The notes beneath the pieces are model-generated. The model saw only the letters and a list, made by a program, of their open reading frames with translations, searched no databases and was not told where the DNA came from. From the IMG/VR virus record IMGVR_UViG_3300005327_000002, positions 16,092 through 80,091 of that record: 64,000 bases of DNA. The stretch is one strand, 5' to 3'. The position numbers and the translations under genes are program-made. Below are positions 17,016 through 62,057 of the stretch, piece by piece; position 1 is the first letter of the stretch; each line of letters begins with the position of its first letter. The DNA is from a virus.

Positions 17016-18059
17016 TCAGTCGCTGCCGGGCGGCCAGGGCTTGGACCAGCCCCACGCCGACGGGTCGTCCCCCAGGCAGTCCGGGCAGGAGCCGCAGTCG
17101 TTGCAGGACTCGTACGGGAGCGGGGTGCGGTCGCCGTACTTCGACGCCGCCGGGTCGGCGCCCGGGTGGGCGTGCTCCGGGTGGACCAGCTTCGACGGGT
17201 CGCGGCGCTCCGGCTGCGGCCGGGCCGGGGCCTGGGCGCGTCCGGCGGCGGGCAGCTGCTGGCGGGACGGGGCATTCAGCGCGGCCAGCGCGGTGCGCAG
17301 CTGATGCTCCGTGGCGTCGTTCGGGTTGTGGCCGTAGGTCCGGGTGTACTGGTCCACCAGCTGCTCCCGGGACCAGCCCAGGGCGTGGGCGGCGTCCTTC
17401 AGCTGGCGCGCGGCCTGGGACCGTCCGGACGGCTGCTGCCCGGAGGGCTGGCGGCCCTGCTGCGGGCGCTGGCCCTGGCGCTGGCCTCCACGGTCCGGGC
17501 GCTGCCCCCGGGGCTGCTGGCGGCCGCGCTGCGCCCCGCCGTCGGCCATCTCCTGGCGGCCGCGCTCCATCATCCGGGCCTCATGCTCCGCCTTGTGGCG
17601 GTCGGGGGTGTCGGAGTCCCCGTCGGCCAGGCCGTCCACCGGGATGTGGAACAACGCGGTGAGCATGTACTTCAGGGCGGCGGTCTCCGCCTTCATGGTG
17701 GCCTTGTCCGCGACGTCCCCGCCCTCACCCCAGTACGCGGCGGTGAAGGTGGAGCCGTCGGGGCCCACCAGGGTGTACTCCACCCGGACGGCCACGTAGT
17801 TCTGGCGGCCGCGCTGCTCGGAGACGCGCTCACCGGCCACGGGGATGATGACCAGCTGGTGCTGGACCAGGGCCCGGTTGAAGGCCGCCAGCACGTCCTC
17901 AATGGACCTGTAGGAGTAGCTGCTGTGGTCGTTCCAGCCGGACTTGCCGATGCCCACCGTGCCGATGGTGTGCATCACGTCCAGGACGGCCTGGTGGACG
18001 GTGCGGGGCGCCGCCCCCCGGGAGGGGGCGGCGGTCGTGATGACTGCTTCGACGGTCAC
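17016..18059 (-). CDS. ERF-family single-strand annealing protein
   Basis: IGKSGWN..YSYRSIEDV, GEG.D.ADKAT.KAET.ALKY.L..LFHIP..D.D; Gln/Arg linker; C-terminal CxxCxxCxxC. Confidence 0.85.
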   Translation of the reverse strand: MTVEAVITTAAPSRGAAPRTVHQAVLDVMHTIGTVGIGKSGWNDHSSYSYRSIEDVLAAFNRALVQHQLVIIPVAGERVSEQRGRQNYVAVRVEYTLVGPDGSTFTAAYWGEGGDVADKATMKAETAALKYMLTALFHIPVDGLADGDSDTPDRHKAEHEARMMERGRQEMADGGAQRGRQQPRGQRPDRGGQRQGQRPQQGRQPSGQQPSGRSQAARQLKDAAHALGWSREQLVDQYTRTYGHNPNDATEHQLRTALAALNAPSRQQLPAAGRAQAPARPQPERRDPSKLVHPEHAHPGADPAASKYGDRTPLPYESCNDCGSCPDCLGDDPSAWGWSKPWPPGSD

Positions 18060-18493
18060 GCGGCCAGGCCCATCCGGGCGGCGCGGGCGGTGGCGATGCC
18101 CTCACGGACACCGGCCAGCAGGCCGTCCGCGTCGTAGGTCTTGCGGGTCTGGCGCTCCGTCACGCTCTCGTCGGCGGAGGCCATGTCCTCCACGGAGGCG
18201 CGGAACATGGAGAAGAAGGCGGTGACCTTCGGCTGCGGGCCGCGCCACACACGGCGGGTGGTGCGGTGGCGGGTGATGCGGTCCAGGCGGAAGGTGCGCA
18301 TCTCGCCGCGCAGCTGGCAGTAGGCGCGGATGACGATGTCCCCGGCCTTCGTGACGTCGATCGAGTGGATCTCGATCGTCCGGACCTCCACCTCCGGGGA
18401 GTCCTTCCCGCACTCGTAGGTGATGGTGACGGGGCGCAGGGCTTCGGCGGCGGTGGTGAGCTGGGCCAGGCGGCGGGTCTCGGTGATCGGCAC
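18056..18493 (-). CDS. Stand-alone WYL-domain protein
   Basis: VTITY..RTIE..RAYCQLRGEMRTFRLDRI. Confidence 0.8.
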   Translation of the reverse strand: MPITETRRLAQLTTAAEALRPVTITYECGKDSPEVEVRTIEIHSIDVTKAGDIVIRAYCQLRGEMRTFRLDRITRHRTTRRVWRGPQPKVTAFFSMFRASVEDMASADESVTERQTRKTYDADGLLAGVREGIATARAARMGLAA

Positions 18494-18586: not shown

Positions 18587-18645
18587 TTGTGATAGTACAC
18601 CGAAGCCCCGCCATGATGCAACATGATGTGGCATCTTGGCGGGGC
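18587..18645 (-). promoter_or_regulatory. Hairpin/operator/promoter module 1 (drives WYL-ERF operon)
   Basis: 15-bp arms with 1 mismatch (18605-18619/18631-18645) around an 11-nt core; minus strand TTGCAT-N18-TACTAT. Confidence 0.75.
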
Positions 18646-18659
18646 CGGGTTGTGGCCGG

Positions 18660-19625
18660 TCAGGCTTGCTTCTGGACCACCAGCAGGTCGCCCAGGCCGT
18701 ATCCGGAGACGTCCCAGCGCTGCTCCAGGAGCGCGCGGACCTCCTCCAGGCGGCGGGCGACCGTGCTGCCGTCGGAGTCCAGTGCGGCGTGGCTCTCGGT
18801 GTAGCCGACCACCACGCCGCCGGAGGCCCGGGTGCGCACGCGAGCACCTTCCGACCAGCGGCGCCCACCCGGGGCGGTCTTGCTCAGGGCGACGCCGTGG
18901 CGGGCCAGGTAGCGACGGACGGCGTCGTAGGCGGCCTCCGGGCCCGGGCCGGTCGGGATGCGCGGGGAGGCGATGGCGTCCGGCGGCAGCTGGCGGGTGG
19001 AGCCGTCGGCGTAGTGCTCCACCCAGCCCAGGGAGCCGTCCACGTTGGGCTTGTGCGCCTGATCGACCTGCAGCAGGCGCCCGCACGCGGTGCACCAGCT
19101 GCCGGAGCGGTCGACCACGCGGCCCTGGGCGGTGCACAGCACCTCCGTGCGGCGGGTCGCGGGGTGGATCATCTGGTACTGCGTGCGGCGCTGCGGTGCG
19201 GTCACCGGCGCGGCGGCGGGCTTGGCGGTGGCGGGCACGGGCTCCTCCTGGGCGGCCGGGGCGGGGGTCTCCTCCGCCTCCTGCGTGGTGTCGGTGATGC
19301 CGGGCACGTCCTGGCGGACCCGGGGGCCGCTGTTGGAGATGCTGCAATCGGCCCGGCCGTTGAAGTTGTAGACGCTGACCCGGAACGGGAAGCCCTCCGC
19401 GTCCGTCGCTGCTTCGATCGCGTCGGCGTGACGGGCAACCGTGTTGTTGGCCTCCCGGCTGTAGAGGATCACCAGGGTGTACAGGCGCTCCCCGGCGGAG
19501 TTGTACTGGCCCGTCACGCTGAAGTCCCGGCGGCCCGCGCCGCCGCGCTGCTGCAGGCCCAGGGCGCGCAGCGCGCGGGCGACGGCGACGGTCGGGGTCT
19601 TCGCGGGGGCGGGCTTGCGGGCCAT
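18660..19625 (-). CDS. Hypothetical multi-domain protein
   Basis: GAAGGAG RBS; GC3 bias. Confidence 0.7.
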   Translation of the reverse strand: MARKPAPAKTPTVAVARALRALGLQQRGGAGRRDFSVTGQYNSAGERLYTLVILYSREANNTVARHADAIEAATDAEGFPFRVSVYNFNGRADCSISNSGPRVRQDVPGITDTTQEAEETPAPAAQEEPVPATAKPAAAPVTAPQRRTQYQMIHPATRRTEVLCTAQGRVVDRSGSWCTACGRLLQVDQAHKPNVDGSLGWVEHYADGSTRQLPPDAIASPRIPTGPGPEAAYDAVRRYLARHGVALSKTAPGGRRWSEGARVRTRASGGVVVGYTESHAALDSDGSTVARRLEEVRALLEQRWDVSGYGLGDLLVVQKQA

Positions 19626-19663
19626 CGGGGGCTCCTTCGGGTCGGTCGTGCTGGCGTCCCCCG

Positions 19664-19720
19664 ATGATGACACACGAAGACCCCTGATGCAACATCATGA
19701 GGCATCAGGGGTCTTCGTGT
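19664..19720 (-). promoter_or_regulatory. Hairpin/operator/promoter module 2
   Basis: Perfect 19-bp arms 19672-19690/19702-19720; minus strand TTGCAT-N17-CATCAT. Confidence 0.8.
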
Positions 19721-19724
19721 CCGG

Positions 19725-20147
19725 TCACGCCACCGTCGCGGGGTAGGTGCGCTCCTGGGCTCCGTCCGGGACGGGCAAGCTGTAGTGCTCGCCCTCCCGG
19801 GACGGCCAGGTGAACACCCGGATGTCCCGGCCGTCCACGGCCCACGGCATGGTGTCCCGGGTGTCCTGGGCCACCTGGTCGGCCAGGTCCTGCTCCGTGG
19901 CCGACCAGGCGGAGGAGCCGTACCTGCTGGCCCGGTCGGCGTCCCCGACGAACACCCGGTAGGTCAGGTCACGGGTGCCGGGCTGCGCGCCGCCGACGTG
20001 GTCCCAGCCCCAGCTGCCCATGGCCAGCAGGCTGGCGAAGGGGCAGCTGTCCAGCGCGGTCCGGGCGGCGGCGTGGTCGGTGCCCTTGTACAGCTCCGTC
20101 ACGCTGCGGCCGTCGGAGGTGACCACGGAGTACATGCGGGCGCTCAC
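19725..20147 (-). CDS. Hypothetical protein
   Basis: GTGA overlap with the HTH gene; GC3 bias. Confidence 0.65.
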   Translation of the reverse strand: MSARMYSVVTSDGRSVTELYKGTDHAAARTALDSCPFASLLAMGSWGWDHVGGAQPGTRDLTYRVFVGDADRASRYGSSAWSATEQDLADQVAQDTRDTMPWAVDGRDIRVFTWPSREGEHYSLPVPDGAQERTYPATVA

Positions 20148-20377
20148 CGGGCGGCCTGCGTGCGGGCGCGGGGCTTGGAGCGGCCCGGGAACTGGGTGCC
20201 GTAGCGGCGCCGGACGGTCTCCCGGGTCACGCCCAGGATGCCGGAGACGGAGTTGACCACGCCGTCCACGCGGGTGGCCAGGATCTCCCGGGCCAGACCG
20301 TCGATCTTCTCCTGCAGGTCGGCCTGCTGCTGCTGCAGGCCTTCCAGCTCCTGAATCTTGCTCTCGGTGGTGTCCAT
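20144..20377 (-). CDS. Small coiled-coil + HTH protein, probable repressor of the ATGC-N11-GCAT modules
   Basis: Heptad region then VVNSVSGILGVTRETVRRRY HTH-like; leaderless start. Confidence 0.65.
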   Translation of the reverse strand: MDTTESKIQELEGLQQQQADLQEKIDGLAREILATRVDGVVNSVSGILGVTRETVRRRYGTQFPGRSKPRARTQAAR

Positions 20378-20383
20378 GGCCCC

Positions 20384-20489
20384 ATGATGGAGCACGAAGA
20401 CGCTTAATGCAACAGGGTGCGCCATTGGGCCTACAGACGGTAACCCAATGCCACATCCTGTTGCATTGAGGGGACTTGCGTGTCATGCT
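20384..20489. promoter_or_regulatory. Divergent promoter pair with two operator copies
   Basis: Minus strand TTGCAT-N17-CATCAT-N6-ATG; plus strand TTGCAT(20461)-N17-CATGCT; operators at 20406 (imperfect) and 20446-20468. Confidence 0.75.
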
Positions 20490-20531
20490 GGCTTCTGCCA
20501 GCACGGAACAGCCCGCCGAGAGGAACCCGAC

Positions 20532-21032
20532 ATGACCGCCTCCGAGACCCCCGCCCGCACCGGGATGCACGTCCGCACCGAGAACGGCACCCGCACCCTG
20601 GTGACCACCCGGGCCGCCCTGGACGAGATGAACGCGGCCATGATGGACAAGGCCGTGAAGCGCACCGTCCGGGAGATGTCCGCCAGCCGCGACAGCGCCG
20701 ACATCACGTACCGGGACGGTCGCAAGGGCCGCAAGGTCAGCCTGCGCCCGGCCAGCGCCCAGGACGTGGCCGACCTGACCCCCGCGCCGGAGACGGAGCC
20801 GGAGGCGCCCGTGGAGAGCGCCCCGGCGGCGCCTGAGTGGCGCACCCTGAAGGGCCTGCGCGTCGGGGACACCGTCCGCCTGTGGTCGGGCAACCGGAAG
20901 ACCGGACCGACCGGAGAGGGCCGGGAGGCCACCCTGGTGGAGATCCGCACCGGCTGGGTCTTCCAGTACACCGACACCGGATGGACGGGCTGGATCGGCG
21001 GCGCCGCGTCCAAGCACTGGGTCTCCGTCTGA
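20532..21032 (+). CDS. Hypothetical protein (C-terminal SH3/KOW-like barrel)
   Basis: GAGAGGAA RBS; LRVGDTVRL. Confidence 0.7.
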   Translation: MTASETPARTGMHVRTENGTRTLVTTRAALDEMNAAMMDKAVKRTVREMSASRDSADITYRDGRKGRKVSLRPASAQDVADLTPAPETEPEAPVESAPAAPEWRTLKGLRVGDTVRLWSGNRKTGPTGEGREATLVEIRTGWVFQYTDTGWTGWIGGAASKHWVSV

Positions 21033-21098
21033 CCGTCACCGCCCCACGGGGCGCAGCCGCCCGGCTGCGCCCCTGCCCTTACCGAGAGGAACCGAACG

Positions 21099-21182
21099 AT
21101 GGCCCGCAAGACACAGCAGCCCCGCAGGCTGACCGACGCGCCCGGCTGGGTCCGCGACGTCCTGGACGGGGGGCTGCGGTGA
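21099..21182 (+). CDS. 27-aa small protein
   Basis: GAGAGGAA RBS; MARKTQQPRRLTDAPGWVRDVLDGGLR; stop overlaps the next GTG. Confidence 0.5.
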   Translation: MARKTQQPRRLTDAPGWVRDVLDGGLR

Positions 21183-21370
21183 GCGCGGGTGTCGCCTGCC
21201 GGGTGCGGGCGCACCGGGGTCTGTGGCGGGTGACGGTCCGCAAGGCCAACTACTCCGCCTTCAACGGCGGGCGCCGGACGCCGTCGGCCTGGTCCCAGCT
21301 GCGCTGCCCGGCCTGCTCCACGTCCTGGCGGAGCAAGGGCGCCTACGTGGACAACGTCCCCGACGCCTGA
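21179..21370 (+). CDS. Small zinc-finger-like phage protein
   Basis: C..H..W..NYSAFNG..TPS.WS.LRCPAC..WRSK. Confidence 0.65.
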   Translation: MSAGVACRVRAHRGLWRVTVRKANYSAFNGGRRTPSAWSQLRCPACSTSWRSKGAYVDNVPDA

Positions 21371-21377
21371 CCTGCGC

Positions 21378-21431
21378 CGAAGACCCCCAATGCCACATGA
21401 TGTTGCATTGGGGGTCTTCGTGTGTCATTCT
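21378..21431 (+). promoter_or_regulatory. Hairpin/operator/promoter module 4
   Basis: Perfect 16-bp arms 21378-21393/21405-21420; TTGCAT-N17-CATTCT. Confidence 0.8.
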
Positions 21432-21469
21432 GGTCTCTCGACCGCACGACCGACCCGAAGGAGCACGAC

Positions 21470-22369
21470 ATGGCGACCATCTCCCCGCGCATGCAGGACG
21501 CGATCCGCACCGGAGCCGACGGCGCGGTGGTCTTCTGCGAGCGCGCCGACACGGAGTCCGCCCTGATCCGGCACGGCCTGATCCACCCGGTGCAGTCCAC
21601 CCTCACCGAGTACGGCCAGCAGGTCCTGGCGGGCCTGCTGGAGGCCGACGCGGCGGCGCAGGCCGCCACCGGCGGCACAGTGCACCGGCCGCAGTCCTGC
21701 GCCCAGGACGCCGACGCCCCGGCGGAGTGGGAGGGCTTCGCCTTCAGCCGGGTGGCGGTGGGCGACTACGTCCGCTTCCAGACCCGGGAGACCGGCTTCG
21801 ACGGGCGCGGCCTGTACTACCGGGAGGGCTGGGTGATCCGCGTCACGGAGTCCTCCATGGTGGTCAGGGTCGGCCACAACGAGACCGCCCGCATCAGCGC
21901 GCAGTCCTTCATGGAGCGGGATGTGGCCCGCAAGCCCGGGATCAAGGTCCCCTACCACCCCGACTTCGCGCACCGGGTCGTCCGGGGCGCGAACGTGACC
22001 GTGATCTGGTCGCCCTTCCCGATCATCGACGCGGCGGCCGTGGTGGACAACTTCCTGGACGCCCGCTACCGGGACGTGGAGACCGTCGCGGAGGCCGCCC
22101 GCTTCACGAAGGCGGAGGGGGCCGACTTCTCCGGCTGGGTGGTGCGCAGCGGGCTGGACTACTCGGACCCGCGACGGACCCGGAAGGCCGCCCTGGAGCA
22201 GCTGGAGATGGCGGTGGCGGACTACTTCGGCGCGGCCGTGGACTACCTGCGCCAGGGCCCGCAGCCGGTGGAGGACCGGCCCACCCCGATGGCCGCGAAG
22301 GTGGCGGCCTTCCAGGAGCTGGCGAAGGAGCTGGAGGCGGCCGGGCTCAACGTGCGCGCCCTGCTCTGA
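21470..22369 (+). CDS. Hypothetical multi-domain protein
   Basis: GAAGGAG RBS; GC3 bias. Confidence 0.75.
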   Translation: MATISPRMQDAIRTGADGAVVFCERADTESALIRHGLIHPVQSTLTEYGQQVLAGLLEADAAAQAATGGTVHRPQSCAQDADAPAEWEGFAFSRVAVGDYVRFQTRETGFDGRGLYYREGWVIRVTESSMVVRVGHNETARISAQSFMERDVARKPGIKVPYHPDFAHRVVRGANVTVIWSPFPIIDAAAVVDNFLDARYRDVETVAEAARFTKAEGADFSGWVVRSGLDYSDPRRTRKAALEQLEMAVADYFGAAVDYLRQGPQPVEDRPTPMAAKVAAFQELAKELEAAGLNVRALL

Positions 22370-22379
22370 CCCCTGCCGG

Positions 22380-22434
22380 ACAACGACCCCTGATGCGACA
22401 TGATGTTGCATCAGGGGTCGTTGTGTGTCATGAT
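22380..22434 (+). promoter_or_regulatory. Hairpin/operator/promoter module 5
   Basis: Perfect 17-bp arms 22380-22396/22408-22424; TTGCAT-N17-CATGAT. Confidence 0.8.
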
Positions 22435-22493: not shown

Positions 22494-22934
22494 ATGAACG
22501 CCCCCGTCTGCGGCTACTCCGCCGCCCACACCGCCGCAGCAGTCCCCGCCGACCTCCGGGTGGGCATGGGCCCGCTGGGCCAGGTCCCCTGCTGCACCCC
22601 CTGCGCCGACACCTACGACCGGCTGAACGGGGTGCCCGGTGAGCGCCTGCCGCTGGCCGCCGTCCGGTTCGCGGTCGTCGCCACGGAGGCGACCTACGAC
22701 GAAGACGACGCCGAGATCATCGCGGTGACCGGCCCCCTGGCCTTCGGCGACAGCCTGGAGCAGGCCCTGAAGGCGCTGCCCGGGGAGACCGTCGGGGAGG
22801 TGTACGCGGTGTGGGCCTCCGCCGACGTGGAGCAGCGCGCGGGCGGCTGCCGCCCCGACTCCCTGGTGATGATCAACGTCTACGGGGACGCCATGGCGCT
22901 GGCCGACACCTACCTGCAGATCGTGGCGATCTGA
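22494..22934 (+). CDS. Hypothetical protein, AVW-RPD-GD-YL family paralog 1 with N-terminal Cys/His motif
   Basis: GAAAGGA RBS; motifs shared with 23331 and 23642. Confidence 0.7.
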   Translation: MNAPVCGYSAAHTAAAVPADLRVGMGPLGQVPCCTPCADTYDRLNGVPGERLPLAAVRFAVVATEATYDEDDAEIIAVTGPLAFGDSLEQALKALPGETVGEVYAVWASADVEQRAGGCRPDSLVMINVYGDAMALADTYLQIVAI

Positions 22935-23308
22935 TGGCCCGCCGCGCCTTCGTCCGCACCGCCGTGGCCAACCAGGTGCACGACCTGGTGGAGGAGCGCC
23001 TGGCCCCCCTGCAGATCCCCGCCGGGAACCTGTCCTTCGGCTACGCCCTGGCGGAGGACATCCTGGCCCTGGTCCGGGGCCAGGAGCCCGACACCGGCCG
23101 GAACCTGGACCGGGAGTGCTACGGCACCCTGTGCAAGGTCGCGCCGACCTGGCGGGCCCGCCTGTCCCCCACCCCGGAGGACGAGACCGGCGGCACGTGG
23201 CTGGGCGCCTGCGGCCGCCACCTGGCCTGGGTGTGCGACCAGATCTCCGACGGGGAGAACGTCGACCTGGACGTGGAGCGCATCCGCGCCTCCCTGACCG
23301 CCCGCTGA
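22934..23308 (+). CDS. Hypothetical protein (Cys/His motif)
   Basis: TGATG coupling; C..C..ACGRHL..VC. Confidence 0.65.
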   Translation: MARRAFVRTAVANQVHDLVEERLAPLQIPAGNLSFGYALAEDILALVRGQEPDTGRNLDRECYGTLCKVAPTWRARLSPTPEDETGGTWLGACGRHLAWVCDQISDGENVDLDVERIRASLTAR

Positions 23309-23330
23309 ACTACCCGAGAGGACACAGCAC

Positions 23331-23642
23331 ATGACCGAGCACTACGCCGTCCAGAAGACCACCGCCACCGAGACCGCCGACGGGGCCGCCTTCGTGCTGG
23401 ACGGGGACGGCCGGGTCTCCCTGGGCCTGGTCAACGCGGTGCACCGCATCGGCGCCTGGGCCGGGAACGTCTTCGCGGTGTGGACCGCCGACGGCCGGGA
23501 CGCGGCGCTGGAGGCGCAGCGGACCCGCAGGCCCGACGCCCTGTACACCGTGACCGACTCCGGCGACCTGCTCCAACTGGCGGACCGCTACCTGGAGTTC
23601 GTGGTCCGCATCGACCGGGCGACCGGCGGATGGGCCGCCTGA
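23331..23642 (+). CDS. Hypothetical protein, AVW-RPD-GD-YL family paralog 2
   Basis: GAGAGGA RBS; shared motifs. Confidence 0.7.
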   Translation: MTEHYAVQKTTATETADGAAFVLDGDGRVSLGLVNAVHRIGAWAGNVFAVWTADGRDAALEAQRTRRPDALYTVTDSGDLLQLADRYLEFVVRIDRATGGWAA

Positions 23643-23986
23643 TGGGCGCCTTCCTGTCGGCCAGCCGCTACGCGGTGCGCCGGGTGGTCCCGCGCGGGAC
23701 CACCGGCGGCGGCGGCTGGGACCTGGTCCTGGAGCAGGACGGTCCCGTGTGGACCGGGGACAGCTGGTCGCGGGGCGCCAACGCGCTGCAGCTGCCGCTG
23801 GGCGGCGTGCTGGCGGTGTGGGCGGACCCGGCCTGGGAGGAGCGGCCGCCGTCCCGGCCGGACCGCCTGTACGCGGTGCTGGGCAGCGGGGACCTGGTGG
23901 CGATGGCGCCGGAGTACCTGACCGGGGTTCAACTCCCGTACTGGGAGCGTCACGGAACGCAGTTGCCCGTGGTGATCAAGGGGTAA
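23642..23986 (+). CDS. Hypothetical protein, AVW-RPD-GD-YL family paralog 3
   Basis: TGATG coupling; shared motifs. Confidence 0.7.
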   Translation: MGAFLSASRYAVRRVVPRGTTGGGGWDLVLEQDGPVWTGDSWSRGANALQLPLGGVLAVWADPAWEERPPSRPDRLYAVLGSGDLVAMAPEYLTGVQLPYWERHGTQLPVVIKG

Positions 23987-24003
23987 GATCCCCGAAATGC
24001 AAC

Positions 24004-24031
24004 AGGGCCCCCGCCCGGAGGCGGGGGCCCT
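24004..24031 (+). terminator. Stem-loop terminator
   Basis: AGGGCCCCCGCC...GGCGGGGGCCCT. Confidence 0.7.
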
Positions 24032-24163: not shown

Positions 24164-25276
24164 ATGTCCTTCACCGCCATCACCTGGGCCCTGGAAGACG
24201 CCCCCGTGGCCGACACCGTGGAGCGGGCCATCCTGGTCAAGCTGGCCAGCCACGCCGACCACGACGGTCGGGCCGCCTTCCCGTCGAAGAAGACCATGGC
24301 CCGCGTGGCCCTGTGCGACCCGAAGACCGTCCAGCGCAAGCTGGCCGCGATGGTCCGCCGGGGGCTGATCGCCCTGGGCGACCAGGAGGCCGCCCGCATG
24401 ATCCCGAAGCACCTTCGCCCCACGGTCTACGACCTCCTGATTCCGGCGGCCTGGTACGGGCCGGAGCAGCTGGAGCGCGTCAACCGGGACCGGGTCTACG
24501 TCGGCCTGCCGCCGCTGGACGCTCTGGACCGCCCCGGCCTGGCCCCCGCCCCGGAGCGCGCGAAGCGGTCGGACGCCGGGGTGCCCCGCCCGCGCCGGGA
24601 CGCCCAGGAGACCGGGGACGGAGTTGTCCACAGGGGGGACTCACAGTCCCCCCACCCGGGGACTGTGAGTCCCCCCACCCGGGGACTGACAGTCCCCCAA
24701 ACCAGTACTAGTAACCAGTCCAGTGAACCTGTCCCTCCGTCTCCCGCCCGCAGGGCGGCAGGTGCGGGTAGTGGGCGCGCGGGCGCGGGGCGGCCCGCTT
24801 CGCGGGGAGATGGGGAGGCAGCGACCGGAGCGACCGAAGGCCTGGTGATCCACGACCGCCCCGACGGGGCCGTGGCGGCCGTCCTGGAGGCCGTGCCCGG
24901 CATCGTGCGGGCGCTGACCCCCGGACAGCTGCGCCTGGCCTCCAGGGCCGTCCTGGGCGTCCTCCAGGGGCCCTTCCAGGACCCGGCCGCCCTGGCCGCC
25001 CACCTGGAGGCCCGGCTGGCGCCCATGTCGCTGACCGACGACTGCGACCCCCGGGCGTTCATCCGCGACCCCTACGCCTGGCTGATCTCCCAGCTGCCGG
25101 ACATCACCGTGTGCCAGGGCGGCTGCGGGCGCACCGTCCACGCCACGGCCGGGCGCAGCGGGCTGCGGTGCGCTTACTGCTCGGACGGCGTCGACCCGGC
25201 CCGGGCGCTGGCGGAGCTGGCGCGGGAGAACGCGGCCGTACTCGGCGACGGGTGCCCTCCGCCGGACTGGGCGTGA
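24164..25276 (+). CDS. HTH replication initiator (lambda O / plasmid Rep-like)
   Basis: MSF.AI.WAL..ILVKLA.HA..G..AFPS..TMAR..KTVQRKL..M..GLI; AGGAG RBS; internal iterons. Confidence 0.75.
   Translation: MSFTAITWALEDAPVADTVERAILVKLASHADHDGRAAFPSKKTMARVALCDPKTVQRKLAAMVRRGLIALGDQEAARMIPKHLRPTVYDLLIPAAWYGPEQLERVNRDRVYVGLPPLDALDRPGLAPAPERAKRSDAGVPRPRRDAQETGDGVVHRGDSQSPHPGTVSPPTRGLTVPQTSTSNQSSEPVPPSPARRAAGAGSGRAGAGRPASRGDGEAATGATEGLVIHDRPDGAVAAVLEAVPGIVRALTPGQLRLASRAVLGVLQGPFQDPAALAAHLEARLAPMSLTDDCDPRAFIRDPYAWLISQLPDITVCQGGCGRTVHATAGRSGLRCAYCSDGVDPARALAELARENAAVLGDGCPPPDWA
24624..24697. repeat. DnaA box plus three palindromic iterons (putative origin)
   Basis: TTGTCCACA 24624-24632; GGGGACT-NNN-AGTCCCC at 24635, 24658, 24681 (23-bp period). 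Confidence 0.75.
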
Positions 25277-37236: not shown

Positions 37237-38463
37237 TCACGGGTTGTCGGTCGGCAGGGCCATCAGCGGCGCCAGCGAGACGGTGACCTTCTCCCCGCCG
37301 GTCGACCACTCCCCGCCGACGTAGACCAGGCGCAGCCCCTGGCGGACCTCCACGCACCGGTCGGTGAACAGCACGTCCACCCGCACCCCGGGGATGAGTC
37401 GCTTGATGTCCACCGGCGCGGTCGGTGCCAGCTGCGCCCGGTCCCCGACTTCGAAGGACACCGGCCACACGGTGCGGCCGCGCAGCAGCTCCTGGGCGTA
37501 GCGGGTCAGCAGCTGCTGCTCCTGGCCCTGCTGGTCCTGGGGGATGGAGACCTTCGTGCCGACGTCCAGGCGCCCGAACAGGCGCGTCCAGCGGTTGTCC
37601 TCCCCGGACGGGTCGACGCACCGCACCCCGGCGGTCACCGCCATGCCGGAGTTCTCCGTGGTCTGGGAGGTGGCCCAGGCCCGGGTGGCGATCTGGTCGA
37701 TCGACCGGACCACGCGCACCGCGCCGCCCAGGTCTTCGGCGGTGAGCAGCGCCTGGGCGTTGGTCCACCACAGGTTGCCCGTCGGGTCGGGGGTGAGCCC
37801 GGCGCCGGGCTTCACCAGCAGGGAGCGCCGGTACACCGTCCAGTCGAAGCCCTGGTCCGACAGGTCGTTCAGGATCTCCAGCAGCGGCACGTACCAGGAG
37901 TCCCGGGTGGTCGACTCCCACCGCACCCCGGTGTAGTAACCCACCATGCTGTCCAGCATGTTGGGCCAGTCCGGCTCACAGGAGTAGTCGCTGTCCAGGA
38001 GGTTGTCCGCGATCGTGCCCAGGGCCACGTCCATGATGTCGCGGGGGCTGTCGGGCAGGCCCTGGATCACCTTCGTGTTCCAGCAGCGGCCCAGCCACAG
38101 CCCCATGTCCTGGGCCTGGATCGTGATCTGGGAGCCCTCCGTGGAGGTGTGGGTGACCGGGCCGCACCACACCAGGTCCGCGTCCCGGTAGACGTGCAGT
38201 TCGTGGCCGCCGGGCATCAGCTTGGACAGCGGTTCGCAGCACTCGGTGGAGGCCTGCGCCAGGTCCAGCACGCACTCCGCCTCCGAGACGTCGCACAGGC
38301 GCCGGTCCCACTTCACCGTGAGCAGCATGCGGTCCGTCTGGTCGGCCTGCAGGTACGGCACCGTGCCGCCGCGCCAGAACAGGGCGACGTGCAGGGCCTG
38401 CGGGCAGCCCAGGGTGTCGCCCGGCTTCAGGTTCTCCCACACCCCCAGGGACATCAGACCCAC
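37237..38463 (-). CDS. Minor tail protein (Tal / baseplate hub-like)
   Basis: W.R.L.DVS, HELHVYRD..LVW.GPV, LIPGV; directly after the tape measure gene. Confidence 0.75.
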   Translation of the reverse strand: MGLMSLGVWENLKPGDTLGCPQALHVALFWRGGTVPYLQADQTDRMLLTVKWDRRLCDVSEAECVLDLAQASTECCEPLSKLMPGGHELHVYRDADLVWCGPVTHTSTEGSQITIQAQDMGLWLGRCWNTKVIQGLPDSPRDIMDVALGTIADNLLDSDYSCEPDWPNMLDSMVGYYTGVRWESTTRDSWYVPLLEILNDLSDQGFDWTVYRRSLLVKPGAGLTPDPTGNLWWTNAQALLTAEDLGGAVRVVRSIDQIATRAWATSQTTENSGMAVTAGVRCVDPSGEDNRWTRLFGRLDVGTKVSIPQDQQGQEQQLLTRYAQELLRGRTVWPVSFEVGDRAQLAPTAPVDIKRLIPGVRVDVLFTDRCVEVRQGLRLVYVGGEWSTGGEKVTVSLAPLMALPTDNP

Positions 38464-41400
38464 GCCCCCTGGACGGAGGAGCCGAACAGGGAGCCGACGC
38501 GGGCGGCCACCAGGTTGGCCAGCAGCCGGGAGTCCTGCGCCTGCGACTGGATCACGAACGTCTGGGTGACCTGGGCGCCGCCGTCCGGCTGCTGGCCGTC
38601 GCGGCGCTGGATCATCGCGGTAAGGCCGGACAGGTCGGCCAGCTGCAGCGCCCGCTGGCGGTTGGTCAGCGGGATGACGACCTCCGCCCCGGCCTCACCG
38701 ATCAGCGCGGTGGTGGGGCCGGTGACGATCGCGCCCCGGGCCAGGCGGGGAATGTGCGGGATGTCCACCGGGGAGAAGTCGTTGAAGCCGTCGGCAAACT
38801 TGTTGATCAGGTCGATTCCCTGATTGATCATCGCCTTCAGTCCGGACCAGATGGTGGAGCCGAAGGACGACAGCGCGGAGCCGATCTTGCCCGGCAGGCC
38901 GGAGAAGAAGCCCGCGATCCGGTCGATCCCCTCCGAAGCTTTCTGACCGGCCCAGGACAGGGCGCTTGACACGGCGTCACCGACCGAACTGCCCAGCGAC
39001 GCAAGGGCGTTGTAGGCCCGGCCGGGCAGCGCGCGGAACCACGCCAGGACGGCGTCACCCCAGGACGGCAGGGTGACCGCCACGAAGTTGATCGCGGATT
39101 CGAAGACGCTTGCGATCATGGAACCCAGGGACGACAGGGCAGAGCCGATCCGGCCCGGCAGGTCCTTGAACCACTGCAGGACGGCGTCGATCGCGGCCGG
39201 GATCGCCTGGATCAGGAACTGCACGGCCCCGATCACGACCGATACGAGCATGCCCGCCAGCGCACCCAGGGCGTACGCGATCCGGCCGGGCAGCGCCGCG
39301 AAGAAGTCCACCACGGCCTGGAACCACACCGGCAGGGTCTCCGTCACGAACGACGCCGCCGCCGTCCAGGCCGCCGTCAGCCCTTGCACCAGCAGGTCGC
39401 CCAGGGAGGAGAACCAGCCGGGCACCGTGACCGTGAAGAAGTCGGCCACGGCCGTGCCGATCGGCGCCAGCCACTCACCGATCTTGCCCGCCAGGCCGAC
39501 GACAGCGCCGACGATCGCGGCGCCGATCGCCACCGCGATCACTGTAGGCAGCGCCGCGAAGAACAGCACCACCTTGGCCGCGATGGGCCCCCACTGGTCG
39601 ATGCTGGAGCCGATCTTGTCACCCAGGGAGAAGACGGCGGACAGCACCTTCGGCGCGGCATCCTCCACCCCCTGGGCAACCTTTTCGATCAGCTGGCCGC
39701 CCAGGTCAAGGGCCGCCTTCGCCAGCGGCGGCCCGTACGTCTTCGCCCCGTCGATCAAGGACCCGATCACCCGGGCGCCGGTCTCCTTCAGATCCGGCCA
39801 GGCCTTCTTCAGGTTGTCCGCCGCCTGGGAGATCGCGGTCTTCAGGGCGGGCAGCGCGTCCTCCACGGACGCTTCGAACTCCCCGATCCCGGAGAAGTCC
39901 CCGGAGAAGATCCCGCCCAGCAGCGTCCGGGCGTTGCGCGCCACGGACTGCAGCTTCGTACCCAGGTTGTCGCGCAGGGCGTCCGCCGCCTTGTCGCTGG
40001 CCCCGGCGACGTCGCCCAGCGACTGGGCGGCGGTCTGCAGGTTCAGGTTGAAGAAGGCCTCACCCTGGGTGATGCCCGGGTCACCGAACAGGGCGCGCAC
40101 CGCGTTGACCGCGTCCTGCGACCCGGGCCCCAGCTCCCGGATTCGGTCCAGGACCTTTCCCAGCCCGGCCCGGGCGGAGTCACCGCCCTTCAGCACCTGG
40201 GCGGACAGGTCGTCGAAGTCGATCCCGATCGCCTTCAGGGCATCGGTGGTCCCCTGCGCCTCCGTGGTGGCCTTCTCGAAGAACTGCGTGATGCCGTCGG
40301 CCAGGGCGTCGCTGTCCTTGGCGCCCTTCTGCAGGCCCTGGTTGAGCAGGCCCATGGCGTCGCTGGCGTTCAGGCCCAGCTGGTGGAACATCACCGGGTA
40401 CTCGGAGAAGGTGTCCAGCAGGTCGTCCGCGATGCCCACGTTCAGCTGCTGGCCCCGGATCAGGATGTCCATGGCCTCCTGGGCGGACCCGGCCAGCTGG
40501 TTCTTCAGGATCGTGGACACCGCCCGCGCGGCGCCGCCCACGTCCCCCTCCAGGACCGTGGCCACGTCCTGCAGCTTCGTGGACAGCCCCTCCAGCCCCA
40601 GGCCCGTGGTGTCGAAGTTCAGCAGCCCCTGGCGCAGCACCTGCTTGACGGCGTCGGCGCCCTCCTCCACGGAGTCCGTGACGCCCTTGGTGTACAGGTG
40701 CCCGGCCACGGTCCCGGCTTCGTGCGCGGCGTCGTCGCTGGCCCCCAGGGCGGCCCGCAGCGAGCCCTCCAGGACCTGGCGGTCCATCATCTGGGAGAAG
40801 GCCTCCGTGAACTGCTCCCGGACCGTGTCGGCGACCTTCAGGAACACGCCCACGGTGATGGCGGCCGCCGCCGCCACGGCCGCCGCAGCCCCGGCCTTGG
40901 CCGACGCCCCGAAGGACGCCATGAAGCCGCCCCCGGCCTCCTCCCCGGCCGCGTCGATGCCCTCCGTGTCGGCGTCCACCTCCACGGTCACCGGGTCCGC
41001 TTCGATCCCGTCGATCTCCGCTTCGGCCCGGGAGGTGTCGGCCGTGACCTCCACCTGGACGCGCTGCGCCGCGTCCCCGACGTCGCGCACCTCCGACTCC
41101 GCGCGGGAGGTGTCCGCGATCACGTCGATCTGGACCACCTCACCGTCCAGGCGGTCGATCTCCCGGGCGACGTCGCCGGTGTCGGCGTCCACCTGGACTT
41201 CGACGTCCGGCACCCGGGTGGACTCGATCTCCTGGACCAGGCCGTCCGTGTCGGCGGTCACCTCCACGTCGGCGGTCAGGTCCTGGGAGGCGCGGTCCAG
41301 GTCGCGGCGCAGCCCCTGCAGCAGCTCCCGGGCGTCGGCGGTCAGGGCGATGCTGGCGGTGATCCCGCCGATCGCGTCGCGCACCGCCCGGGCGAAGCCG

Positions 41401-41525
41401 TTCAGGTCGGGGGCCATCTTGACCTTGAAGGCGGGCATCCGCGCCAGCTTGCGGGCCAGGTCCTGCTGGAACTTGGCCGTGTCCGCTTCTACTTCAACCG
41501 CCGCTGTGGCGTAGGGAGTTGACAC
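38454..41525 (-). CDS. Tape measure protein
   Basis: 1023 aa, Ala/Gly-rich helical; DDLLDTFSEY, WF..LPGRI repeats, IPRLARG..ALIGEAGAEVVIPL; N-terminal V.V.ADT repeats. Confidence 0.9.
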   Translation of the reverse strand: MSTPYATAAVEVEADTAKFQQDLARKLARMPAFKVKMAPDLNGFARAVRDAIGGITASIALTADARELLQGLRRDLDRASQDLTADVEVTADTDGLVQEIESTRVPDVEVQVDADTGDVAREIDRLDGEVVQIDVIADTSRAESEVRDVGDAAQRVQVEVTADTSRAEAEIDGIEADPVTVEVDADTEGIDAAGEEAGGGFMASFGASAKAGAAAAVAAAAAITVGVFLKVADTVREQFTEAFSQMMDRQVLEGSLRAALGASDDAAHEAGTVAGHLYTKGVTDSVEEGADAVKQVLRQGLLNFDTTGLGLEGLSTKLQDVATVLEGDVGGAARAVSTILKNQLAGSAQEAMDILIRGQQLNVGIADDLLDTFSEYPVMFHQLGLNASDAMGLLNQGLQKGAKDSDALADGITQFFEKATTEAQGTTDALKAIGIDFDDLSAQVLKGGDSARAGLGKVLDRIRELGPGSQDAVNAVRALFGDPGITQGEAFFNLNLQTAAQSLGDVAGASDKAADALRDNLGTKLQSVARNARTLLGGIFSGDFSGIGEFEASVEDALPALKTAISQAADNLKKAWPDLKETGARVIGSLIDGAKTYGPPLAKAALDLGGQLIEKVAQGVEDAAPKVLSAVFSLGDKIGSSIDQWGPIAAKVVLFFAALPTVIAVAIGAAIVGAVVGLAGKIGEWLAPIGTAVADFFTVTVPGWFSSLGDLLVQGLTAAWTAAASFVTETLPVWFQAVVDFFAALPGRIAYALGALAGMLVSVVIGAVQFLIQAIPAAIDAVLQWFKDLPGRIGSALSSLGSMIASVFESAINFVAVTLPSWGDAVLAWFRALPGRAYNALASLGSSVGDAVSSALSWAGQKASEGIDRIAGFFSGLPGKIGSALSSFGSTIWSGLKAMINQGIDLINKFADGFNDFSPVDIPHIPRLARGAIVTGPTTALIGEAGAEVVIPLTNRQRALQLADLSGLTAMIQRRDGQQPDGGAQVTQTFVIQSQAQDSRLLANLVAARVGSLFGSSVQGAWV

Positions 41526-41529
41526 GTGC

Positions 41530-42012
41530 TCACCCCCTGGCCTTCACGCCGGGCGGGGGCATGAACATGCGGGTGGACCAGCCCTTGACCTCCGCCGGGC
41601 CGTCCATCCGCTCCACCCGGTAGGCCACCGCGCTGGCCAGGATGCGCCGGGCGTCCTCCCGCTCCGGGTCGAAGCCCCTGCGCACGCACCACACCGTCCA
41701 CGCCAGGTGCTCCTCCGCGACCTCCAGGAGGATGCGGTGGGCGGCCCACCACGGCATGCCGTACACCTGCTCCGCGACCGCGAAGGCCACCGGGCGCAGC
41801 GCCATGTAGTCCAGGACGTCGTCCGGGTCCTCCAGGCGCTCCTGCCACCAGGCGCGCTGATCGTCCGGCAGGTGGCCGGGGAACAGCGGGCGCCAGTCGT
41901 CGGCGGCCGCCCAGGTGCACGCCAGCGGTCCCGGCGGCTGCTCCATGGTGACCAGGTAGGCCTGGCCGTCCATGTCCACCGGGACAGCGACGGGGGCGAC
42001 GGTGCCGAACAC
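41530..42012 (-). CDS. Tail assembly chaperone (downstream)
   Basis: Directly upstream of tape measure; GMPWWAA..L motif. Confidence 0.6.
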   Translation of the reverse strand: MFGTVAPVAVPVDMDGQAYLVTMEQPPGPLACTWAAADDWRPLFPGHLPDDQRAWWQERLEDPDDVLDYMALRPVAFAVAEQVYGMPWWAAHRILLEVAEEHLAWTVWCVRRGFDPEREDARRILASAVAYRVERMDGPAEVKGWSTRMFMPPPGVKARG

Positions 42013-44355: not shown

Positions 44356-45906
44356 TCACCGGCCCGGCAGGCGGCGGCCCCCGGGCGACGTGCGGCCCTC
44401 CAGGCGCCGTCCGGCGCGGCCGCTGACGGTGTCCAGTCTGCGGGGCCCGGTCTCCTTCACCAGGTGCTCCGTCCCGGCGGGTCGCAGCAGGTTGATAGCG
44501 ATGTACGCGGAGGCGTCCAGCGCGCCCGGGCTGTCGACCGACCCGGCGCGGTAGGAGGCCCACTGCCGCTGGAGGTGGGTGAGGCCGCCGACGAACAGGA
44601 CGCGGCCCATCGCCACCTCCTGGGCGACGGGCTCCGCCCGCAGCACCTTCCCGCGCAGCGCCCGCACCGAGATGATCGCGGGCATAAGGCCGCTGCGGGG
44701 CTTGCGGCTCCAGGCGGTGCGGATGGCCTGCTCCACCAGCCGGTTGGCGAAGTTGACCTCCAGCAGGATGCGGTCCGCCTGGGCGCGGTCGGCGATGTCG
44801 CACACCCGCTCCGGCCACTCCGTCACCGGCATCACGGCGGAGTCGTCGGCCGTGATGATCACCCGTTCGTCGTGGGTCTGGATACCGGTGATGATGCCGA
44901 CTTCGTCCCCGCCGCCGCCGGACGGGTCGACCGCCACGACGACCAGGGACGCCTCCGGCAGCCGGGCCGCCGGGATGGTGGCCTCCTGGAGCTTGTCCCA
45001 GGAGATCAGCGCGCCCTCCCGGGGGTGCGGGTCGCCCTGGTACAGGGCGTGCCAGTCCAGCGCCAGCGGCAGGCCGGAGCGCTTGTCCTCCCAATGTTGC
45101 AGAAGACGCACCACGTCCCGGTCCGGGATCTTCGGGTGCGTCAGCGGCTCCCCGTCACGCCTGCCCAACGGGTCCGTCCCGCCCGTCAGCTTCAGGTCCG
45201 CCAGCGCCGGGAGGTGGATCACCGACCACTTCCCGCCCTCCTCCGCCCGCCCCTCCCGGTCGATCAGGCGCAGCACCGGGTCCCGCTCCGTCCACAGCGT
45301 GCCGATCATCACCACCGGGCTGGAGGGCGCCAGGCGCGTCAGCATGGACGACGACAGCCAGTCCCAGGCGGTCTGCTGCTCCGCCGGGCTCTCCGCCTGC
45401 GCGCGGTTCTTCCAGATGTCGTCCACCAGCACGATGTCCGCGTCGTAGCCGGTGATGCCGCCGCCGATGCCCGACGACTTCAGGCCGCCCCCGGCCGACG
45501 TCGACCACTCCGCCACCGACTTGGCGTCCCGCGCCAGCCGCACTCCGTACCGGCCGCCGATGTCCCGGACCAGGTTGCGCACCCGGCGTCCGTTGCGGTT
45601 GGCCAGGTTCTGGCCGTAGCTGGTCGTGATGATCTTCGTGTGCGGGTTGCGCATCAGCAGCCACGCCGGGGTCCACACGTTGGCCAGCTCCGTCTTGCCG
45701 ACCTGCGGCGGCGTGATGATCGCCACCCGCGCGCCCGGGCGGCGCAGCGCGGCCGCCAGCTGCTCCCCGATCAGCTCCGTGTGCGCCCGGATCTTGAACC
45801 GGTCGCGGGGCGTGTGGCGGGCCGCCAGCAGGTGCGGGAAGCGCAGCGCCGCCAGGTCGGCGGAGCGCTGCTCCTGCGGGCTCTCACGCCGCTTCGTCGT
45901 CGGCAT
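44356..45906 (-). CDS. terL: Terminase large subunit
   Basis: TPPQVGKT Walker A, GGGITG, IVLVDD Walker B, ALYQG.P, VAVDPS nuclease, DA. Confidence 0.92.
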   Translation of the reverse strand: MPTTKRRESPQEQRSADLAALRFPHLLAARHTPRDRFKIRAHTELIGEQLAAALRRPGARVAIITPPQVGKTELANVWTPAWLLMRNPHTKIITTSYGQNLANRNGRRVRNLVRDIGGRYGVRLARDAKSVAEWSTSAGGGLKSSGIGGGITGYDADIVLVDDIWKNRAQAESPAEQQTAWDWLSSSMLTRLAPSSPVVMIGTLWTERDPVLRLIDREGRAEEGGKWSVIHLPALADLKLTGGTDPLGRRDGEPLTHPKIPDRDVVRLLQHWEDKRSGLPLALDWHALYQGDPHPREGALISWDKLQEATIPAARLPEASLVVVAVDPSGGGGDEVGIITGIQTHDERVIITADDSAVMPVTEWPERVCDIADRAQADRILLEVNFANRLVEQAIRTAWSRKPRSGLMPAIISVRALRGKVLRAEPVAQEVAMGRVLFVGGLTHLQRQWASYRAGSVDSPGALDASAYIAINLLRPAGTEHLVKETGPRRLDTVSGRAGRRLEGRTSPGGRRLPGR

Positions 45907-46438
45907 CGTCGCCCCCGGCCCCGGCGGGCGGGAAGAACTCATCGAAGCGGGCCACGGCGTCGTCCACGGCCGCCCGCAGGTCGTAGGAGTCGTCCTCCGC
46001 CGTGCCGTCCGGGATGACCGGGTGGGCGCTGCGCAGCGCGGTGGCCATGCGCATCACGTCGGCGGTCTGCACCCGCTCGATCGGCTGGCCCAGCAGGGAC
46101 TCCGCCTTGTTGTTGATCAAGGTCATGACCTTCAGCACGGCGGAGGAGCGCAGCCGGGCGGCCTCCGTCAGGTCGGCCAGCACCCCGGCCCGGCTGTCCA
46201 CCCGGTCGGCCAGCGACTGCTGCGCCTGCTCGGTGTCCCAGGCGATGGCGCGGGCGCTCCACCCCCAGTCGGCGGCCACCCGCCGCAGGTAGCTGTGGGA
46301 CAGCCGCAGCACGTCCGCCGCGCGGTCCAGGCGGCGGTCCGGCAGCGCCAGCCAGTCCAGGAACCGTCCGTACTGCTTGTCCGGCTCCCCCGGCTGCTGC
46401 GCCCAGGCGTGTGGTCCGGTATCGGTGAGATCGTCCAT
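45884..46438 (-). CDS. Terminase small subunit
   Basis: W.QQPGE..Y.RF, W..RA.AWD motif; overlaps terL. Confidence 0.7.
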   Translation of the reverse strand: MDDLTDTGPHAWAQQPGEPDKQYGRFLDWLALPDRRLDRAADVLRLSHSYLRRVAADWGWSARAIAWDTEQAQQSLADRVDSRAGVLADLTEAARLRSSAVLKVMTLINNKAESLLGQPIERVQTADVMRMATALRSAHPVIPDGTAEDDSYDLRAAVDDAVARFDEFFPPAGAGGDDADDEAA

Positions 46439-50797: not shown

Positions 50798-51002
50798 CGG
50801 TGCCCCCTGCGGCGTCGTGGGCGGACGGGCGGGCGTCGGCGGGCCGGGTGGCGGGCGGGAAGCGCTCCGCCAGCTCCGACAGGTACTCGATCGTCTCGGA
50901 CAGGGTCATGTCCCGGTCCAGCGCGGCGGACAGCTGGCGGACGGCCCGGCGGAGCGCGGCCTGCGCCCCGGCGGTGATGCTGATCTTCGTGTAGTTAGCC
51001 AT
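50781..51002 (-). CDS. Small DNA-binding-like protein
   Basis: YTKISIT..TLSETIEYL; TATGGT-N6-ATG. Confidence 0.6.
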   Translation of the reverse strand: MANYTKISITAGAQAALRRAVRQLSAALDRDMTLSETIEYLSELAERFPPATRPADARPSAHDAAGGTGEQRA

Positions 51003-52519: not shown

Positions 52520-52522
52520 GCC

Positions 52523-57958: not shown

Positions 57959-58023
57959 GCTCAGTACTCCCTGTGTCGGTAGGTCGCTGCGCGTGACCCT
58001 ACCGCCGTGTGGGACCCTGTCGC

Positions 58024-58057
58024 CTGACCCCGGATATGTATGTGTATCCGGGGCGAC
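58024..58057. promoter_or_regulatory. lox-like recombination site
   Basis: CCCCGGATA-TGTATGTG-TATCCGGGG, 30 nt upstream of the recombinase. Confidence 0.6.
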
Positions 58058-58083
58058 CCCAATTCGTACGGAGATGTGACGAC

Positions 58084-61897: not shown

Positions 61898-61898
61898 G

Positions 61899-62057
61899 TC
61901 AGGCTCCTTCGGTCCAGCGCTCATCCGCGCTGGGGTCGTAGTGCTCGGTGTGCTTCGTCTTGGACTTCCCGCAGACCAGCGTCCGGCCGTCCTTCACGGC
62001 CACGGCGGCGCAGCGGGCGTGAATGGAGGGGCGGGCGGCGGGGCGGCGGGCGCTCAC
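61899..62057 (-). CDS. Small Cys/His protein
   Basis: C..C..H..HYD..W; GTGA-coupled to the HTH gene. Confidence 0.5.
   Translation of the reverse strand: MSARRPAARPSIHARCAAVAVKDGRTLVCGKSKTKHTEHYDPSADERWTEGA

Follow-up and report, generated by a model that had tools for sequence, protein, structure and literature searches.

Why should a phage place nearly the same palindromic sequence at one gene boundary after another within a single small part of its genome? The question is raised by a 64,000-nucleotide stretch of viral DNA (the window; bases 16092-80091 of the 80,091-bp IMG/VR record IMGVR_UViG_3300005327_000002), in which six paralogous intergenic units, which we call E1, E2, E3L, E3R, E4 and E5, all lie inside 3.9 kb (18.6-22.4 kb) of an 80-kb genome. 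The record is a complete virus of 73% G+C, whose terminal repeat measures 60 bp; positions given below are those of the window unless a genome position is stated, and the features are collected in Table 1. A first reading of the letters, referred to here as the original prediction, had seen a core, ATGC-N11-GCAT, shared by five elements and a weaker copy, and had proposed that each unit stops one transcript, starts the next and is shut off by a single repressor. The repeats are confined to this island, and in them a hairpin, a dyad and a promoter-like sequence overlap; a hairpin that ends the upstream transcript, joined to an operator and a promoter, is the function that would fit them best.

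The five cores and the weaker copy are present as described and far exceed chance. ATGC-N11-GCAT occurs exactly five times in the window (at 18616, 19687, 20448, 21390 and 22393), where 0.28 occurrences are expected, and none of 100 shuffles gave five; a search with the 19-mer allowing up to three mismatches returned zero chance matches. The sixth, degenerate copy (20407-20425) keeps the CTGTTGCAT half while its other half is degenerate. The core is confined to these six places in the whole 80,091-bp genome, and so is TTGCAT-N17/18-nAnnnT. When the copies are aligned in the promoter direction they run as left arm, ATGCCACAT-N-ATGTTGCAT, right arm (approximately GGGGTCTTCGTGTGT) and CATNAT, and the invariant columns are concentrated in the 19-bp core, while the arms and the spacer drift. 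The tip bases ACAT-N-ATGT are conserved although they would fall in the loop or next to it and are not part of the -35. A conserved tip between drifting arms points to a factor that recognizes the dyad by its sequence, and so to an operator. At core positions 5 and 15 a left-hand C faces a right-hand T, unpaired, in five of the six copies, so that TTGCAT stands on the promoter side only, with TGGCAT on the other, as would suit a one-way promoter.

The promoter boxes named in the original prediction, a -35 TTGCAT followed after 17-18 nt by TACTAT, CATCAT, CATGCT, CATTCT or CATGAT, read as claimed. TTGCAT-N16-18-CATNNT has five matches against 0.01 expected, and the sixth copy, E1, is TTGCAT-N18-TACTAT. 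The spacer measures 17 nt (18 nt in E1), and the right arm of the hairpin consists of the -35 plus this spacer. Four copies carry TGT directly before the -10 (an extended -10), positions 2 and 6 of every -10 are A and T, and the TTG of the -35 is invariant. The dyad, centred near -39, spans about -48 to -30, and a dimer bound to it would overlie the -35. E3L and E3R diverge at the centre of the island and jointly form an inverted repeat with 27-nt arms (20403-20470), their dyad centres 41 bp apart, or about four helical turns. In E3L, CATCAT is followed by 6 nt and then by the ATG at 20377, placing the start of a 77-amino-acid (aa) open reading frame (ORF) exactly 7 nt past the -10. This is the standard leaderless geometry of actinobacteria, and the transcript of the 77-aa gene would, judging from this spacing, be leaderless, as had been predicted together with the divergent centre. 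Shine-Dalgarno (SD)-like motifs lie 6-10 nt ahead of the other five start codons.

Four of the units (E1, E2, E4 and E5) are near-perfect palindromes of 41-49 bp, the longest in the genome, with arms of 20-24 nt that are 90-95% complementary around a 1-nt centre. They start 4-14 nt past the upstream stop codons (14, 4, 7 and 10 nt for E1, E2, E4 and E5), and as RNA they fold at -35 to -43 kcal/mol, with z scores from -4.6 to -7.2; a search of Rfam 15 gave no match at the gathering score, only sub-threshold matches to miRNA-like hairpins. No gene precedes the central E3L and E3R, which lack long arms of their own and mirror each other. The restriction of long arms to places where a gene ends upstream is what a role at transcript ends would predict, and it separates the function of the hairpin from that of the core.

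Covariation analysis bears out that the mirrored arms of the four palindromic copies differ yet stay complementary. With the six copies aligned without gaps, 76% of mirror-position cells pair, against 33-49% with slid partners, and both sides have changed in 13 of 26 pairs, a score reached by 0 of 500 shuffles; the set consists of six paralogous copies in one genome and thus holds few independent events. E2 and E4 share an identical outer arm (GAAGACCCC) and, when one of the two is inverted, show 83% identity across 89 nt, a stretch that takes in a 21-nt leader and its SD, whereas the arms of E1 have fully diverged from those of E2, E4 and E5. The idea that structure rather than sequence is conserved therefore holds for the outer arms, but not for the tip, which is conserved in sequence, nor fully for the right arm, which is also a fairly conserved promoter spacer. 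A leader of 21-40 nt with its ribosome-binding site (GCACGACCGACCCGAAGGAGC...) is common to E2 (19623-19660), E4 (21440-21472) and genome positions 2360-2442, where it is 90% identical to that of E2 over 40 nt. The gene at this last place, 33 kb off, has a canonical TTGACA-17-TAAGCT promoter with neither dyad nor hairpin. The shared pieces of leader and arm thus suggest that regulatory pieces have been copied around the genome.

From these repeats, palindromes, covarying arms, positions relative to genes and promoter geometry, all of them read directly from the DNA, we infer termination, promoter activity, protein binding and the sign of the regulation. The best fit, to which we give a probability of roughly 0.55, is a hairpin terminator or 3'-end former combined with a dyad operator over the -35 and a promoter. 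The six units (about 55-100 bp each) would split an early or accessory region into separately controlled units running outward from the divergent centre, each doing up to three jobs on overlapping DNA. First, the 41-49 bp palindrome at the 3' end of the upstream transcript would form an RNA hairpin of 20-24 bp that terminates or stabilizes that transcript. Second, the tip of the palindrome would present the 19-bp dyad ATGCnACATnATGTnGCAT, with the -35 TTGCAT inside its promoter-side half, so that a dimeric DNA-binding protein sitting on it would keep sigma region 4 away and silence the promoter. Third, TTGCAT, a 17-18 nt spacer doubling as right arm (usually with a TGT end) and an nAnnnT -10 would make up a promoter of the host's principal-sigma type with an extended -10, judged by geometry. 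The terminator-operator-promoter module of the original prediction thus stands as far as anatomy goes (stop-codon spacing, tip and promoter geometry), while its function is argued from sequence alone.

Who would read the dyad? The candidate is the 77-aa protein, made from the central leftward leaderless transcript, whose gene is coding by composition (G+C at third codon positions, 0.95). Only two homologues are detectable among billions of proteins, both on short contigs (Logan, 1,508 bp; JGI, 1,921 bp), one with 79% identity by BLASTP (81% in the alignment) and one with 41% (45% over the matched stretch). The homologue on the Logan contig starts with MPHHGSMDTT, whose His-His could stem from translation of a conserved CATCAT -10. 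The N-x-V-x-GIL-x-V-x-RETVRR segment, which resembles a helix-turn-helix (HTH), is kept in both. AlphaFold2 models the protein as a helix at residues 3-48, a short helix at 52-62 and a disordered basic tail (mean predicted local distance difference test score 72.7). Its best resemblances, all weak and sub-threshold, are to Fis, sigma region 4, LuxR-type HTH, HTH_8, HTH_Crp_2 and HTH_23/28, and the look-alike clusters in the Atlas all score below 0.9. From its coiled-coil and HTH-like sequence and its position we infer that this protein is a plausible autoregulated repressor reading the dyad. The weakest dyad stands at its own promoter, so by this positional argument the repressor could stay expressed while the cargo is shut, a half dyad leaving the five cargo promoters more tightly repressed than its own.

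A GntR-family protein (genome 8001-8690), the one further clear regulator that the genome encodes, was rejected as reader of the dyad since different repeats stand at its own promoter: its upstream region (genome 8700-8760) carries TGTCATAG / CTATG repeats and no dyad. The 9-mer GTGTGTCAT occurs once in the same upstream region.

Several observations weigh against an operator, a promoter and a terminator in each unit. The HTH of the 77-aa protein falls below every curated threshold (Pfam, PHROGs, NCBIfam), its best Pfam match being HTH_8 at E 0.17, and searches of PDB by sequence and by fold gave no significant match. The boxes score about 7/12 against the Escherichia coli consensus (3/6 at the -35); C replaces T at -12 in five copies, and a generic promoter scan of the region lists none of the six. 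The hairpins lack a U-tract, as do others of this genome (21048-21073 and 24004-24031); such hairpins are common in actinobacteria, where their efficiency as terminators is debated. Six copies in a single genome are few and have a common ancestry, and the left half of the core can partly be explained as the complement of the -35 inside a hairpin.

The search for relatives weighs on the same side. The original prediction had looked to a motif search for the core across phages and plasmids, and this brought up no unit-bearing relative in IMG/VR, in GTDB, among the JGI matches listed, or in cultured phages and plasmids. The exact core pattern gave 13 single matches in IMG/VR, none of them high-GC with arms, while the promoter-side pattern gave none there; the GTDB genomes held 34 scattered single matches, and the JGI metagenomes at least 119 loci, with no multi-copy high-GC relative among the matches listed. 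Searching cultured phages and plasmids by blastn with the E4 unit returned only chance matches to the leader, and IMG/VR searches guided by the 77-aa protein, the ERF protein, the 321-aa protein and the alignment A2 returned nothing.

The explanation that competes best, though we consider it unlikely, is that the units are promoter and terminator cassettes only, of the PeSL type and without a dedicated regulator, the core being the -35, its complement and shared ancestry. PeSL cassettes in the T4-type phages RB49 and phi1 comprise a stop codon, a stem-loop, a sigma-70 promoter, an SD and a start (PMC2839356; Arbiol et al. 2010). The stem-loop may occupy the spacer or extend over the -35, and about 50 copies per genome lie in hyperplastic regions ahead of ORFans (PMC2839356). 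Promoter and terminator activity have been tested, transcription from upstream ends at the stem-loops, recombination between copies drives shuffling, and PeSLs function without an operator (PMC2839356). The units described here, with their putative promoters, have the same layout, four copies placing a stable stem-loop between an upstream stop and a downstream SD and start, and they too are clustered ahead of ORFan genes, six copies in 3.9 kb. Moreover, the right half of the core holds the -35, to which the left half has to stay complementary if the hairpin is to persist, and the likeness of E2 to E4, leader included, suggests recent copying. However, ACAT-N-ATGT is conserved outside the -35 while the arms of E1 have diverged fully, the central copies retain the core where no hairpin is needed, and the two cores 41 bp apart at the divergent centre resemble a classic operator pair. 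PeSLs differ in being AT-rich and of consensus strength; their carriers are lytic myoviruses, their short stems consist of G/C tracts, and a conserved dyad is absent, whereas the units here have 20-24 bp stems and a 19-bp dyad tip over the -35, number only six and diverge around a regulator gene in a temperate phage of 73% GC.

A further alternative, less probable than the last, follows the example of Mor and C in phage Mu: the dyad would be the site, at about -39, of an activator, a small dimeric HTH protein (of 77 aa or another one) that brings RNA polymerase to middle-type promoters. The span of the dyad, about -48 to -30, is where activators of class II and of the Mor type bind, and the imperfect -35 and -10 would suit such help. 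One of the look-alike clusters of the 77-aa protein (TM 0.60) has 72% of its members in Pfam Mor, which we take as a lead only. On the other hand, the invariant TTG and the TGn extended -10 of four copies suggest promoters independent of an activator, the one-sided TTGCAT argues for reading by sigma, and an activator with its weakest site at its own promoter would face a start-up problem.

Marginally less probable still is the idea that the units are portable seams, exchanged with the help of ERF, and at the same time supercoiling-sensitive cruciform promoters whose tip is read by a Fis-like 77-aa protein. Homologous exchange between units would then invert, swap or excise cassettes in the manner of PeSL mini-circles, and extrusion of the long palindromes into cruciforms would make the availability of the promoters track supercoiling at DNA entry.

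We give little chance to a host regulator reading the dyad, which would make the cargo obey a host signal. A metagenome contig of an unrelated organism with 67% GC (FSXL01000626.1, 1477-1495) carries ATGCAACATGATGTTGCAT, a perfectly symmetric 19-mer, between divergent genes for a TetR-family protein and an MFS transporter, with a further half-site some 30 nt away. Such a symmetric core between TetR and MFS genes indicates that the dyad is the kind of site used by dimeric HTH regulators, but this one is probably the operator of that TetR protein and unrelated to the phage. The match was selected by the search pattern itself, the single matches (at least about 150, across all kinds of taxa) behave like chance, and we know of no Streptomyces regulator box that fits.

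It is highly improbable that the palindromes act as DNA, be it as cruciforms, as single-stranded DNA (ssDNA) promoters or as site-specific recombination sites for cassette exchange, seeing that phage DNA and TraB-type plasmid DNA enter cells double-stranded, that no recombinase adjoins the units (the integrase lies 35 kb away), and that the cassettes have their own promoters in both orientations. Integron attC sites, which have a conserved base (R/L boxes), a variable centre, promoterless one-way cassettes and an adjacent integrase, were rejected, the tip being conserved and the base variable here. Frpo-type ssDNA promoters, in which -35 and -10 both lie inside the hairpin stem, were rejected as well, since the -10 lies 2-5 nt past the right arm in 4/4 palindromic copies; the cruciform or ssDNA-dependent control once envisaged thus found no support. 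In favour of a role as DNA, the 41-49 bp palindromes with their 1-nt centre could extrude under supercoiling, the ERF recombinase gene adjoins the island, and PeSLs mediate shuffling (PMC2839356). Two other promoter classes were tried and rejected: N4-type hairpin promoters, no giant virion RNA polymerase being evident, and an ECF-type promoter on the opposite strand, whose TGCAAC-to-CGT spacing of 22 nt is too long.

If the units are hairpin terminators joined to operators and promoters, as we prefer, where would they stand among known phage operators? The CIR operators and c repressor of phiC31 were reportedly described by Ingham, Wilson, Smith and co-workers in the 1990s. We re-derived the dyad from NC_001978 as CCTACTCACGTGAGTAGG, with about 15 intergenic copies over the whole genome. 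Some of these stand at the tip of longer hairpins directly after genes (34784, 27545 and 6100 of NC_001978, the first followed by a T-run), and they therefore offer a precedent, among Streptomyces phages, for terminator-like hairpins with an operator as their tip. In both cases one conserved dyad is repeated between genes of a temperate phage, but CCTACTCACGTGAGTAGG is unrelated to the dyad found here, ATGCCACATGATGTTGCAT; the phiC31 dyads avoid a TTG-type -35, and the early promoters of that phage are a separate repeated motif downstream. The 683-aa c repressor has no match in the complete genome at E <= 1.

The stoperators of cluster A mycobacteriophages (L5, Bxb1) are likewise short multicopy sites among phage genes, read by one regulator. 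They differ in being asymmetric 13-bp sites, oriented with transcription and present in many copies, also within operons, where they block elongation; the six 19-bp dyads here stand at promoters only, which sets them apart from that class. With the lambdoid OL/OR-type operators, which lie between a repressor gene and early genes, the divergent centre shares a promoter pair, two dyads whose spacing of 41 bp puts them on one face of the helix, and a small, presumably leaderless regulator gene, lambda cI being leaderless when transcribed from PRM. The difference is that the operator-promoter recurs here, joined to hairpins, where genes meet at four more places downstream, and that the 77-aa candidate is not of the Cro/CI family by any threshold. 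Cluster O mycobacteriophages have more than 30 17-bp dyads, about a third of them inside genes and not tied to promoters, together with divergent leaderless SigA-type promoters (PMC4351075), whereas each copy here belongs to one promoter, with a hairpin. The island is, in sum, a neat variation on a design already familiar from phages, a PeSL-like cassette combined with a multicopy phage operator, and not a new kind of system.

By these units about 5 kb of early genes, to which no function can be assigned, would be split into separate transcription units (Table 1). The cargo was expected to be mostly small proteins without known relatives, and this is the case: apart from WYL and ERF, nothing in it matches Pfam, NCBIfam or a functional PHROG. 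It thus shows no recognisable function that would mark it as an early anti-host region, with which the original prediction had compared it. The WYL and ERF genes are translationally coupled by a stop/start overlap. Between the two genes behind E3R lies a 27-aa micro-ORF (21099-21182) with a good SD and a GTGA overlap with the GTG start of the 63-aa gene; ahead of it stands a plain 12-bp GC hairpin (21048-21073) with no promoter unit.

Table 1. Units of the island with their putative promoters and hairpins, cargo genes and other features, in window coordinates.
Feature	Position	Strand	Description
E1	18592..18645	-	Palindrome 18605-18645, core 18616-18634; TTGCAT, 18-nt spacer, -10 TACTAT (18592-18597); 14 nt past stop of 321-aa gene; heads WYL-ERF operon; RNA hairpin -35.4 kcal/mol, z -4.6
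E2	19664..19720	-	49-bp palindrome 19672-19720, core 19687-19705; TTGCAT-N17-CATCAT (19664-19692); 4 nt past stop of 136-aa gene; heads 321-aa gene; RNA hairpin -42.9 kcal/mol, z -6.9
E3L	20384..20425	-	Degenerate dyad 20407-20425 (single good half CTGTTGCAT); TTGCAT-N17-CATCAT; no long arms of its own
E3R	20448..20489	+	Full dyad 20448-20466; TTGCAT-N17-CATGCT; heads 166-aa gene
E4	21378..21431	+	Palindrome 21378-21420, core 21390-21408 (consensus copy); TTGCAT-N17-CATTCT; 7 nt past stop of 63-aa gene; heads 299-aa gene; RNA hairpin -41.3 kcal/mol, z -7.2
E5	22380..22434	+	Palindrome 22380-22424, core 22393-22411; TTGCAT-N17-CATGAT; 10 nt past stop of 299-aa gene; heads 146-aa gene and three further small genes; RNA hairpin -42.6 kcal/mol, z -7.2
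Right-hand boundary	23997..24031		Isolated half-site CTGTTGCAT on - strand (23997-24005) without usable -10
GC-rich hairpin	24004-24031		Touches boundary half-site; past last rightward small gene
77-aa gene, candidate regulator	20144..20377	-	N-terminal long helix, HTH-like C-terminal segment (GILGVTRETVRRRY), basic tail
136-aa gene	19725..20135	-	Apparently co-transcribed with 77-aa gene
321-aa cargo gene	18660..19625	-	phrog_15616, function unknown
Operon behind E1	17016..18493	-	WYL protein (18056-18493) and ERF (17016-18059)
WYL-domain protein	18056-18493	-	Stand-alone, 145 aa, without HTH
ERF-family recombinase	17016-18059	-	
Cargo behind E3R	20532..21370	+	166 aa (20532-21032), 63 aa (21179-21370)
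299-aa cargo gene behind E4	21470..22369	+	No family match
Cargo behind E5	22494..23986	+	146, 124, 103 and 114 aa; no family match
Replication-initiator-like HTH_36 protein	24164-25273		
Tape-measure protein	38457-41543	-	
Large terminase	44359-46053	-	
PrimPol	49292-50905	-	
Family A DNA polymerase (PolA)	52520-54481		
Tyrosine integrase, phage-type	57997-59097		Sole integrase; 35 kb from units

The recognisable proteins, the identity of the terminase to those of cultured phages (at most 41%) and weak DNA matches of a few cargo genes to Streptomyces phages and plasmids mark the carrier, on its sequence, as a temperate siphovirus-type phage with a Streptomyces-like actinobacterial host and no close sequenced relative. 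The replication-initiator-like gene contains a perfect palindrome with 19-bp arms and a 6-nt loop (GGGGGGACTCACAGTCCCC / GGGGACTGTGAGTCCCCCC; 24633-24676), which may be an origin within the initiator gene, by analogy with lambda O. The product of a gene at 61466-61993 on the - strand contains a Phage_ProQ_C_like domain (E 6.6e-13). Since RNA 3' hairpins are what ProQ/FinO-type proteins bind, it could conceivably be connected with the numerous strong hairpins that this phage has. Near the GntR gene a large protein (genome 14129 to window 701) has a sub-threshold match to FtsK/SpoIIIE (E 7e-4), and the GntR and FtsK-like proteins together suggest plasmid-like functions (Kor/TraB-type) on a phage genome.

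What the island would illustrate is how little DNA, about 55 bp, a GC-rich temperate phage can spend on a transcript end, an operator and a promoter when the promoter spacer doubles as a hairpin arm and the -35 as half an operator. With six sites and one candidate regulator of 77 aa, it would make a small and clean test system in which to ask how actinophages insulate and co-regulate their accessory genes, and it may supply compact, insulated and switchable promoter parts for the engineering of Streptomyces.

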